The notes beneath the pieces are model-generated. The model worked only from the letters and a program-made list of their open reading frames with translations. It was not told where the DNA came from and searched no databases. Shown here in pieces: positions 24,447 to 26,248 of a stretch of DNA of 32,000 nt (within the stretch, counting starts at the first letter, position 1; each line of letters opens with the position of its first letter). The position numbers and the translations under genes were made by a program. This DNA comes from Candidatus Saccharimonadota bacterium (GTDB lineage Bacteria > Pseudomonadota > Gammaproteobacteria > Enterobacterales > Enterobacteriaceae), in the NCBI GenBank assembly GCA_002688505.1, contig CP024013.1, positions 233,548-265,547 of the forward strand, in the 5' to 3' direction.

Positions 24447-26248
24447 TTATATATTATAAAGTATTGGTATTCCTAATATTGATAAACCTATTCTTAAAGT
24501 TTTAGCTATTATAGCTATTAATTTTAGTTTACTATTTTTTATTTTTTTATTTTTTATATTAGATATATTTTCTTTTTCGTAATAATTAGAGAATAATGAA
24601 CTAATTTTATATAAATATAAACAAATTATATTTGGTTTACATTTTTTAGTTGTATAAAAAATTATATTTTCGAAATCTAAAATTTTTTTTGATATTTCAT
24701 ATTCTAATTTTGATAAAATATAAAATTTATTATTTTTTATTGATTTTGTTGTATTAGTATTATTTTTTCTTAGTATTGATATTATTCTTGTATATGAATA
24801 TTGTATATATGGTCCTGTATTAGAATTTAAACATAATGTTTTATTTATATCAAAAATATAATTAGTTTTTCTATTTTTTGATAAATCCATATATTTAATT
24901 GCTGATATAGTAAGTTTTTTAGCAATTCTATTTATTTTTTGTTTATTATATTTTTTATTTTTTATTAGTTTTTTAGATTTTTGTTTTATTAATTCTATTA
25001 GATTTTTAATTGTTAAATTATTTCCTTTTCTAGTTTTTATTGGTTTTCCTTTTTTATTTAATATTAAACCGAAATAATAGTTTTTAATATAAAAATTTTT
25101 AGGTATGTATTTAGCATTTTTACATATATTAAAAATTGTTTTAAAATATTGTTTTTGTCTAAAATCAGTAAAATATATTATTTTATTTATTTTAAATTTT
25201 TTATATCTATATTTTATTGAAGCTATATCTGTAGTACTATATAAAAAAGCTTTATCTTTTTTTTGAATTATTAAAGGAAATTTATTTTTTAATAATATTA
25301 TTATTGATTTTTTATTTTTAATAGCTATTTTTTTCTTTATTAAATCTTTAGTTATTTTAGAAAGCATATTATTATAAAAACTTTCTCCCATATTGTTTTT
25401 TATTTTTAAATTTATATTTAGATAATTATATATTTTTTGATTTTCATTAATTGTTATTTTAACTATTTTTTTTCATATTTTAATTATATTTTTTTTTTTT
25501 TTTTTTTTTTTTTTTTTTTTTTTTTTTTTTTTTTTTTTTTTTTTTTTTTTTTTTTTTTTTTTTTTTTTATTGATTTAATCTTTAATATAGTTAATTGTTG
25601 TCTATGACCTTTAATTCTTAAATAATTTTTTCTTCTTTTAAATTTATTATTATTTTTATATTTTTTATATGCTAATTTATATATTTTTTCTATTATTTTT
25701 AAATTATTTATTTTATTTTCTAATTTAAATTTTTGTATTCATGTTATTATAATTCCGAATTGAGTTCCTCAATCTCCTATATGATTTATTTTTATTATTT
25801 TATTACCTAATAATTTTAATATATTAGAATAAAAGTCGCCTAATATTGTTGATCTTAAATTTCCTATATGCATTTGTTTTGCTATATTAGGTGATGAATA
25901 GTCAATTAATATTTTTTTTTTTTTTTTTGATTTAATATTAAAATTTTTTTTTTTAGATATTTTATTTATTATATTTTCTATATATTTTTTATTAATAAAT
26001 ATATTTATAAATCCTGGATTAATTATTTTTATTTTATTAAATATTTTTTTTTTTATTAATTTTTTTTTTATAATTTTAAATAAAAAATTTATTTTAATTT
26101 TTTCTTTTTTAGATATTTCTATCATACCGTTAATTTGATAGTCACTAAATTTAGTATTGTTACATATTTTATAATTATATTTTTTTTTTATATTTATTGT
26201 TTTAAGTATTTTTTTTATTTTTATTTTTATATATTTTTTAATATTCAT
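24447..26248 (-). CDS. argS: Arginyl-tRNA synthetase, reading frame interrupted inside an A80 tract (1802 nt; needs +1 or -2 nt)
   Basis: The N-terminal part (first codon base at 26248) contains FSDYQINGM, INPGFINIF, IDYSSPNIAKQMHIGNLRSTILGD and INHIGDWGTQFG. The C-terminal part contains NIIKIWKKIVKIT..NQKIY..LN, MGESFYN, LYSTTDIASIKYR, KPIKTRKG, AIKYMDLSKNR.TNYIFD, NTGPYIQYSYTRI and SKLKLI..AKTL..GL..LGI. Both are colinear with E. coli ArgS. The two parts lie in different frames that are both open only across the homopolymer at 25489..25568. Confidence 0.9.
25489..25568 (-). repeat. 80-nt uninterrupted homopolymer (poly-T on + strand, poly-A on the argS coding strand)
   Basis: Counted directly: 2 T (25489-25490) + 10 + 60 + 8 T (25561-25568), flanked by A25488 and A25569. 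The next-longest runs I saw in the window are 12 to 17 nt. Confidence 0.95.

Follow-up and report, generated by a model that had tools for sequence, protein, structure and literature searches.

A run of 80 adenines at a recorded frame break in the arginyl-tRNA synthetase gene of a reduced Stammera genome

The poly(A) tract and the two reading frames of argS

In the stretch of 32,000 nucleotides (nt) analysed here, hereafter the window (positions 233,548 to 265,547 of contig CP024013.1, assembly GCA_002688505.1, forward strand), the gene for arginyl-tRNA synthetase (ArgRS), argS, carries 80 consecutive A residues on its coding strand (A80), across which the reading frame changes. We favour, if only modestly, the explanation that A80 is real, a coding poly(A) run that is greatly expanded and unstable in length, and that the gene remains functional. 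The further-reaching claim, that in this 271-kb genome the sole ArgRS gene lacks a stable frame at a run of about 80 nt and that the enzyme, bearing an arm of about 26 lysines, arises only from a stochastic slippage fraction, is one that we consider possible but doubtful. ArgRS is indispensable and argS essential, and argS is the only ArgRS gene seen within the window. The genome, from whose contig of 271,175 bp the window is taken, has a GC content of 14.8% and reads TGA as Trp. The closest ArgRS proteins belong to about 40 genomes of 245-325 kb, which a scan of species-representative genomes identified as Candidatus Stammera capleta; Stammera is the pectinolytic gut symbiont of tortoise beetles.

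The argS frames were read with translation table 4, in which TGA encodes Trp, because this reading is required for the GDWGTQFG motif of ArgRS and for six positions of the neighbouring aspS. The features on which the argument turns are the following.

25489-25568, minus strand: A80 homopolymer (exact count; T80 on the plus strand), 26 AAA codons (Lys) whichever flanking frame is used
25484-25486, minus strand: TAA closing the upstream frame, two codons past the tract
25575-25577, minus strand: TAA shutting the downstream frame, two codons ahead of the tract
25569-26248, minus strand: 5' part of argS, with the N-terminal add-on domain, the HIGH-type motif MHIGN and GDWGTQFG; ends at the tract
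24447-25490, minus strand: 3' part of argS in the other frame, from AAT at 25490-25488 through NIIKIWKK... to TAA at 24449-24447; PF00750 and PF05746

The upstream frame opens with ATG at 26248-26246, continues to ...KFKRRKNYLRIKGHRQQLTILKIKSI (LTILKIKSI), traverses the tract as 26 AAA codons and ends with ATA (25489-25487) and TAA (25486-25484). The downstream frame follows the TAA at 25577-25575, reads I-N-K26-NIIKIWKKIVKIT... and proceeds to its stop at 24449-24447. Neither half contains a further stop or shift, and the overlap of the two frames is confined to A80, which is bordered by a unique left flank, ...GATTAAATCAAT (also ...AAAGATTAAATCAAT), and the right flank TATAATTAAAATATGA. The recorded length is one base short of an in-frame length, and at 81, 78 or 84 nt the two frames would fuse into a single open reading frame (ORF). 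An earlier reading made from the letters of the stretch (the sequence-only reading) had reported the 80-nt tract, the 26 lysines followed by ATA TAA, the opening of the second frame just before the tract, the restriction of the overlap to the homopolymer and its removal at 81 or 78 nt, and all of this held up, as did its statement that the tract is far longer than any other run in the window and its alignment of the site with Escherichia coli ArgRS. Its premise that the frame is broken is correct for the record; as a premise it is weaker than that reading assumed, because a protocol similar to the short-read one described below, if used, would leave the length of an 80-nt run uncertain by at least one base.

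The next longest homopolymer of the window measures 17 nt (25912-25928, likewise in argS and in frame), followed by runs of 13 and 12. A/T runs of at least 10 nt number 31 in the window, and A80 alone among them breaks a gene. In sister Stammera DNA totalling 272.7 kb, the number of A/T runs drops about 0.57-fold per extra base, with a maximum length of 23, and extrapolation of this decay gives an expectation of about 3e-15 runs of 80 nt or longer per genome, which excludes a chance origin of A80. Lysine codons are nearly all AAA (405 of 426, 95%, in six clear genes of the window), so that a run of Lys codons is in almost every case a slippery A-run as well.

The tract site in sister genomes

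We compared the tract site with 13 Stammera genomes obtained from the unbiased scan, each of which has one argS locus. In 13/13 argS reads straight through the site, with the sequence ...KFAKKSRKNVVKLQKKKKKIIKIWKK..., and five of them carry an in-frame A-run encoding Lys5-6 at exactly this position (A18 in L002, L003, L005 and L008; A16 in L012). The 3' boundary of the run, ...(A)nT-ATA/ATT-AAA-ATA-TGA, is preserved in the window and in these five sisters. Because in-frame runs of A16-A18 sit exactly at the site, A80 appears to be an older slippage hot spot that has expanded greatly. GDWGTQFG and GESFY are separated by 303 nt in 12/13 sisters and by 300 nt in L011, compared with 404 nt in the window, an excess over 303 of 101 nt, i.e. 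2 modulo 3. The run exceeds that of the A18 sisters by about 62 nt, and about 38 nt net of non-homopolymer sequence have been added before it.

The tract segment aligns with residues ~209-230 of the E. coli ArgRS structure 4OBY. In the AlphaFold model of the sister protein P0002 (mean pLDDT 90.9), a helix at residues 201-215 is joined by a turn at 216-218 to a second helix at 219-242; since the tract maps to the turn, the ancestral poly(A) would encode the three-residue tip of a helical hairpin, which, on the model, makes a structurally plausible place for an insertion. Across 45 ArgRS, from Stammera to Fusobacterium, the segment is invariant in length except for one insertion of a single residue, and it contains a near-invariant Leu-Gln and an invariant Trp.

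The sequence preceding the tract

The 24 codons that precede the tract match neither the sisters nor the conserved ArgRS hairpin. Two elements can be distinguished.

25569-25609, minus strand: 41-nt insert specific to the lineage, GGTCATAGACAACAATTAACTATATTAAAGATTAAATCAAT; codes for GHRQQLTILKIKS(I) and is missing from every sister genome
25610-25633, minus strand: diverged remnant of the first hairpin helix (RKNYLRIK), from DNA and protein alignments

With a GC content of 22% the insert is richer than the genome, and it is open in the upstream frame only. This openness offers weak support for translation, since a stop-free stretch of 14 codons has a chance of about 0.25 at this composition. 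The insert was absent from 14 sister loci and from JGI metagenome contigs, a blastn-short search returned chance 9-12-mers only, and no second copy occurs in the window with up to 3 mismatches allowed. A local duplication or inversion finds no support as its source, its Smith-Waterman score against the rest of argS being 23, below the shuffled mean of 28.6. A 7-nt direct repeat, AATTAAA, flanks insert and tract together; we judged it to be a chance occurrence in DNA of this composition, and removal of the unit would delete the hairpin loop.

In the remnant, the Val-Val of the conserved NVVKLQ is missing and another residue stands in place of the near-invariant Gln. The pre-tract segment retains AGA-AAA-AAT...TAT-TTA, and has the derived Tyr-Leu in common with the nearest relative, L001. 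The pre-tract mismatch, the insert and the loss of Val-Val had been missed by the sequence-only reading, which saw the tract and the frames. Its list of explanations (a mis-sized homopolymer, slippage, length variation among genome copies, a pseudogene) also lacked an artefact affecting the tract as a whole, the ancestral A16-18 hot spot, and the argS breaks in three other Stammera assemblies that are described below.

Both halves of argS are constrained

The gene on either side of the tract has the features of a class I ArgRS (PF03485 / PF00750 / PF05746), with the HIGH-type motif, the DALR domain and full-length homology; the C-terminal ORF (P0001) matches PF00750 and PF05746, and the 3' part completes the catalytic core with its second half and adds the anticodon-binding DALR domain. 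The sister protein P0002 aligns with 4OBY over residues 2-563 (E=8e-124). The upstream and downstream halves are stop-free over 227 and 347 codons, respectively, in a genome of 15% GC. Among the 34 columns that are invariant in the 45 ArgRS, 33 are retained, the lost one being a Leu beside the tract. Compared with L001, codons 1-205 show 88.8% identity and a ratio of nonsynonymous to synonymous substitution rates (dN/dS) of 0.152, and the 347 C-terminal codons 86.7% identity and a dN/dS of 0.147, with dS at ~0.4. The six neighbouring genes (aspS, ruvC, prmC, prfA, lysS and pth) have dN/dS values of 0.18-0.44, and both argS halves lie below all six. The gene order aspS-argS-prmC-prfA is conserved with the sisters, and no other gene is split in the stretch compared.

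An established pseudogene would be expected to show several lesions, relaxed constraint or both. The argS of the window has one lesion and two strongly constrained halves, and because the halves are open, keep nearly all invariant residues and evolve with a dN/dS of about 0.15, a long-standing pseudogene is unlikely as judged from the sequence. The pseudogene option of the sequence-only reading is thus disfavoured. One could still imagine a very recent pseudogene, that is, a real, fixed out-of-frame expansion in a cell in which charging of tRNA-Arg is supplied in some other way. The recorded consensus is indeed out of frame, the hairpin is locally disrupted by the lost Val-Val, the replaced Gln and the 14-codon insert, and homopolymer indels are the usual first step of gene erosion in endosymbionts (PMC3017870). 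We nevertheless regard this as very improbable: the lesion is single, the constraint just described extends over both halves, the enzyme is indispensable, and each of the 13 sister genomes yielded one argS locus in the scan. Import of a host enzyme is implausible on general grounds, given the largely extracellular life of Stammera.

The position of the break invites another thought, namely that ArgRS is split, with residues 1-227 plus a poly-Lys tail assembling non-covalently with a separately initiated C-terminal fragment, and with the tract serving as a spacer. The break lies in a helical insertion between the Rossmann-fold halves, both halves are equally constrained, and fragment complementation of class I synthetases works at connective-insertion positions. 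Against this, the first ATG of the downstream frame lies 33 codons past the tract, inside helix 219-242, and corresponds to Ile in most sisters, so that the start would not be a conserved one; no start signal is evident; 0/13 sisters of the unbiased scan are broken at the tract position; and the mechanism is required only if the frame break is real. A split enzyme accordingly strikes us as highly improbable.

Further poly(A) hot spots and frame breaks in argS

In most of the sister loci sampled, argS carries the longest homopolymers (up to A23), and their lengths vary between strains, which points to active slippage there. Two further runs of this kind are present in the argS of the window.

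25912-25928, minus strand: second argS poly(A) hot spot, A17, in frame (KSKKKKKIL); A16-A23 in sisters, broken in L008 (A22)
25944-25954, minus strand: third argS poly(A) run, A11, in frame (SKKKNF); the homologous run in L016 is A13 and frame-breaking

In L008 (CP043980.1, Stammera, 245,897 bp), argS has a one-base break at A22 (3093-3140), where A23, the length found in L013, would restore the frame; translation ahead of the break ends in ...NFNIKKKKKKK*, and this break accounts for the 442-residue ArgRS call (P0007). We fetched two more loci, L015 and L016, because their proteins were short. L016 (CP144793.1, 2400-2450) has a one-base break at A13, where A12 is needed, and a called protein of 437 residues (P0039), and L015 (CP144790.1, 2290-2345) has a one-base split between A11 and A6 and a called protein of 445 residues (P0012). 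With the window included, 4 of ~41 Stammera argS genes are frame-broken. No frame break was found in nine neighbouring genes across the same 15 loci, and the frame offsets therefore track the long poly(A) runs of argS. These offsets could be homopolymer miscalls or real slippage alleles.

Assembly evidence and the case against a real A80

Public short reads contain the strain. The Logan assembly (k=31) of SRR6147586 includes a contig of 3,256 bp that is identical to window positions 25899-29154 at 100%, the T17 run included; the strain is therefore present in these reads and the surrounding assembly is accurate. The contig starts (L014:1-31 = window 25899-25929) at the first 31-mer that spans the full T17 and the flanking G, which suggests that the reads contain the 17-nt run in more than one length and that this branches the assembly graph. 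The other end of the contig falls at an AT-rich inverted repeat (29125-29177, intergenic, after a cold-shock protein gene), its terminal 53 nt matching their own reverse complement.

Whether A80 itself is real is less secure. The protocol published for the Stammera genome series started from PCR-based libraries of 300-bp fragments and 2x150 Illumina reads, which were assembled with MEGAHIT; gaps were then filled manually, with "removal of local assembly errors". The assembler and platform of the present record may differ, but a similar procedure, if used here, would not fix the length of an 80-nt homopolymer to the exact base. A more radical possibility is that A80 is an artefact of assembly or representation, the true locus holding a short run (~A18) or some other sequence. 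It could have arisen where a homopolymer self-loop of the de Bruijn graph was collapsed or over-extended, where manual gap closure joined a chimeric contig tip, or where a gap was filled with a placeholder (N, say, encoded as A in 2-bit format before reverse complementation); the odd 41-71 nt ahead of the tract might share that origin. The published protocol counts in favour of such an artefact. The number 80 equals k+1 for k=79, which is part of the MEGAHIT default k list, and k=80 in an IDBA-type series. The pre-tract sequence departs, with no detectable source, from a gene that is otherwise 87-89% identical; branching by homopolymer length is already indicated at the 17-nt run; and the length of A80 is unique among all Stammera DNA sampled. 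An artefact would, however, need to coincide with an ancestral poly(A) hot spot and to keep its 3' boundary, although assemblers preferentially fail at such sites. The pre-tract segment is moreover partly homologous (AGAAAAAAT..TATTTA, with the Tyr-Leu shared with L001) and open in the upstream frame, and the neighbouring 3,256 bp are perfectly reproduced by the independent k=31 assembly. Taking both sides together, we consider the artefact unlikely, yet a serious rival and the main alternative to a real tract.

Several other observations weigh against a real tract in a working gene. A80 is 3.5 times as long as the longest run in the 272.7 kb of sister DNA, and 80 is a suspiciously round number. 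The same-strain Logan contig stops 330 nt short of the tract. A search of the contig index for exact copies of the C-terminal ORF (P0001) gave no match, the N-terminal argS ORFs are absent from the protein collection, a 99-residue query from directly downstream of the tract had no match in the same collection, and no second assembly of this strain was found among the collections searched. The 41-nt insert, for which no source was found, also fits a chimeric contig end. The hairpin is so conserved in length that, judging by the alignments, tolerance of about 40 extra residues together with the loss of Val-Val is not assured. Finally, in E. coli and most organisms tested, long AAA runs depress the yield of protein and shift the reading frame, according to the passage of PMC7295572 that cites Koutmou 2015. 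A protein search with the pre-tract segment plus poly-Lys returned distant, short ArgRS fragments only; matches were apparently restricted to ~1.75 times the query length or less, and the Lys run probably swamped the index.

A proposed route to functional ArgRS

The explanation that we favour, a real and unstable tract in a working argS, would run as follows. The ancestral Stammera argS had a run of AAA codons (A16-18, Lys5-6) coding, on the model, for the hairpin turn in the helical insertion of the catalytic domain. In the present strain, replication slippage may have enlarged this run to roughly 80 nt; along with this expansion, 41 nt would have been inserted and a few codons lost. The product would be an ArgRS with an extra segment of ~40 residues (GHRQQLTILKIKSI plus ~26-27 Lys) projecting from the tip of the hairpin.

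Replication slippage should make the length of such a tract heterogeneous among genome copies, and RNA polymerase would be expected to slip again on A/T runs that exceed its hybrid of ~9 bp; polymerase slippage on A/T runs in endosymbionts is discussed in PMC3017870 and PMC5574713. Templates or transcripts with a length that is a multiple of three, about one third of the total, would then yield the full-length enzyme, an ArgRS of ~600 residues from whose hairpin tip a Lys-rich arm extends. Ribosome sliding on the AAA runs could add to the full-length enzyme or cut its yield. Because short-read assemblies cannot size such a run to the single base, and because length heterogeneity and re-slipping are expected, the recorded 80 says next to nothing on the frame and should not be read as a fixed frameshift.

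The 95% share of AAA among the Lys codons of the six window genes and the in-frame runs of A16-A23 in the sister genomes show at the level of sequence that shorter A-runs are handled by this expression system. That it would also cope with 26 AAA codons is what we infer from this background, and the presence in cells of a tract of about this length, its heterogeneity, the slippage and the tolerance of the insert are all likewise put forward as probable parts of the favoured explanation.

Comparison with known systems

The closest parallel is found in Buchnera and Blochmannia, where, according to the section of Williams & Wernegreen 2010 (PMC3017870) that cites Tamas 2008 and Wernegreen 2010, poly(A) frameshifts in otherwise intact essential genes are rescued by transcriptional slippage; the genes named there include dnaX, dnaG and pth. 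As in those cases, the host genome is that of an AT-rich, reduced insect symbiont, a one-base offset lies inside an A-run of an intact, essential and slowly evolving information-processing gene, and polymerase slippage, giving a mixed transcript pool, is the proposed route to the full-length protein. In argS the sole disruption of the frame falls within an A/T homopolymer of at least 9 nt, and the gene is otherwise intact and does not evolve at an accelerated rate, so that, on its sequence, argS has the structure of this slippage class. It differs in that the tracts of Buchnera and Blochmannia measure ~9-12 nt ("some as long as 12 bp") against 80 nt in argS, in that the argS tract would add ~26-27 Lys, and in that its frame state is not conserved in the sisters.

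In length, A80 resembles the coding poly(A) of Plasmodium, which reaches 65 A in strain 3D7 and 111-132 A in other strains and species (Pavlovic Djuranovic et al. 2020, PMC7295572). These genomes are also extremely AT-rich and carry AAA-only Lys runs inside conserved ORFs, implying tolerance of poly(A). Plasmodium is, however, a eukaryote with altered ribosomes and mRNA surveillance, and its tracts are in frame and numerous, in contrast to the single tract in argS. Plasmodium species apart, we know of no precedent, and of none in bacteria, for a coding homopolymer of such length.

Phase-variable contingency loci (PMC2831843) share with argS that slippage changes the length of a homopolymer and toggles the frame. 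Their tracts typically measure 7-20 nt and lie in dispensable surface, restriction-modification or regulatory genes, whereas switching off argS would be lethal; we rejected this assignment for a gene that is essential and single-copy in the 13 sister genomes scanned. Ribosome sliding on iterated AAA is comparable in that consecutive AAA Lys codons make bacterial ribosomes lose the frame and could thereby help to restore it. As far as it is covered by PMC9207662 and by the citation of Koutmou 2015 in PMC7295572, sliding concerns ~4-12 codons in E. coli reporters and a loss of yield; it differs from the present case in not having been demonstrated as an expression route of an essential gene.

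Other features of the window

No Rfam family lies close to the tract, and a local repeat scan gave nothing relevant there; the Rfam matches in the window are four tRNA genes only (6622-6694, 6779-6865, 9320-9393 and 12224-12295). Long antisense ORFs lie opposite real genes, among others at 25437-25607 (plus strand, poly-Phe across T80), 25105-25377 (plus) and 18621-19373 (plus). These are by-products of the extreme AT content and not genes, being kept only through conservation of the sense genes. The genes dnaA, dnaN and gyrB follow one another at 1623-6615, and the window therefore begins near the conventional start of the record, close to the replication origin. Cumulative GC skew climbs over most of the window, with a reversal at ~14-19 kb.

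Significance

Should A80 prove to be an artefact, it would constitute an error in a reference "complete" genome, and would be a warning not to count argS among the pseudogenes or as absent from the core genome. If it is real, the rescue of genes by polymerase infidelity would extend from tracts of ~10 nt to a genome that no longer specifies the frame of an essential translation enzyme, and a bacterial RNA polymerase and ribosome would pass ~26 AAA codons well enough to sustain life. A hairpin of ArgRS that is otherwise highly conserved in length would bear a cationic arm of 40 residues, and a tolerance of poly(A) and poly-Lys like that of Plasmodium would exist in a bacterial expression system, in what would to our knowledge be the longest coding homopolymer of any bacterium. 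Together with the A22, A13 and A11 cases, A80 would then provide concrete loci at which slippage-dependent expression can be studied in an experimentally tractable symbiosis.

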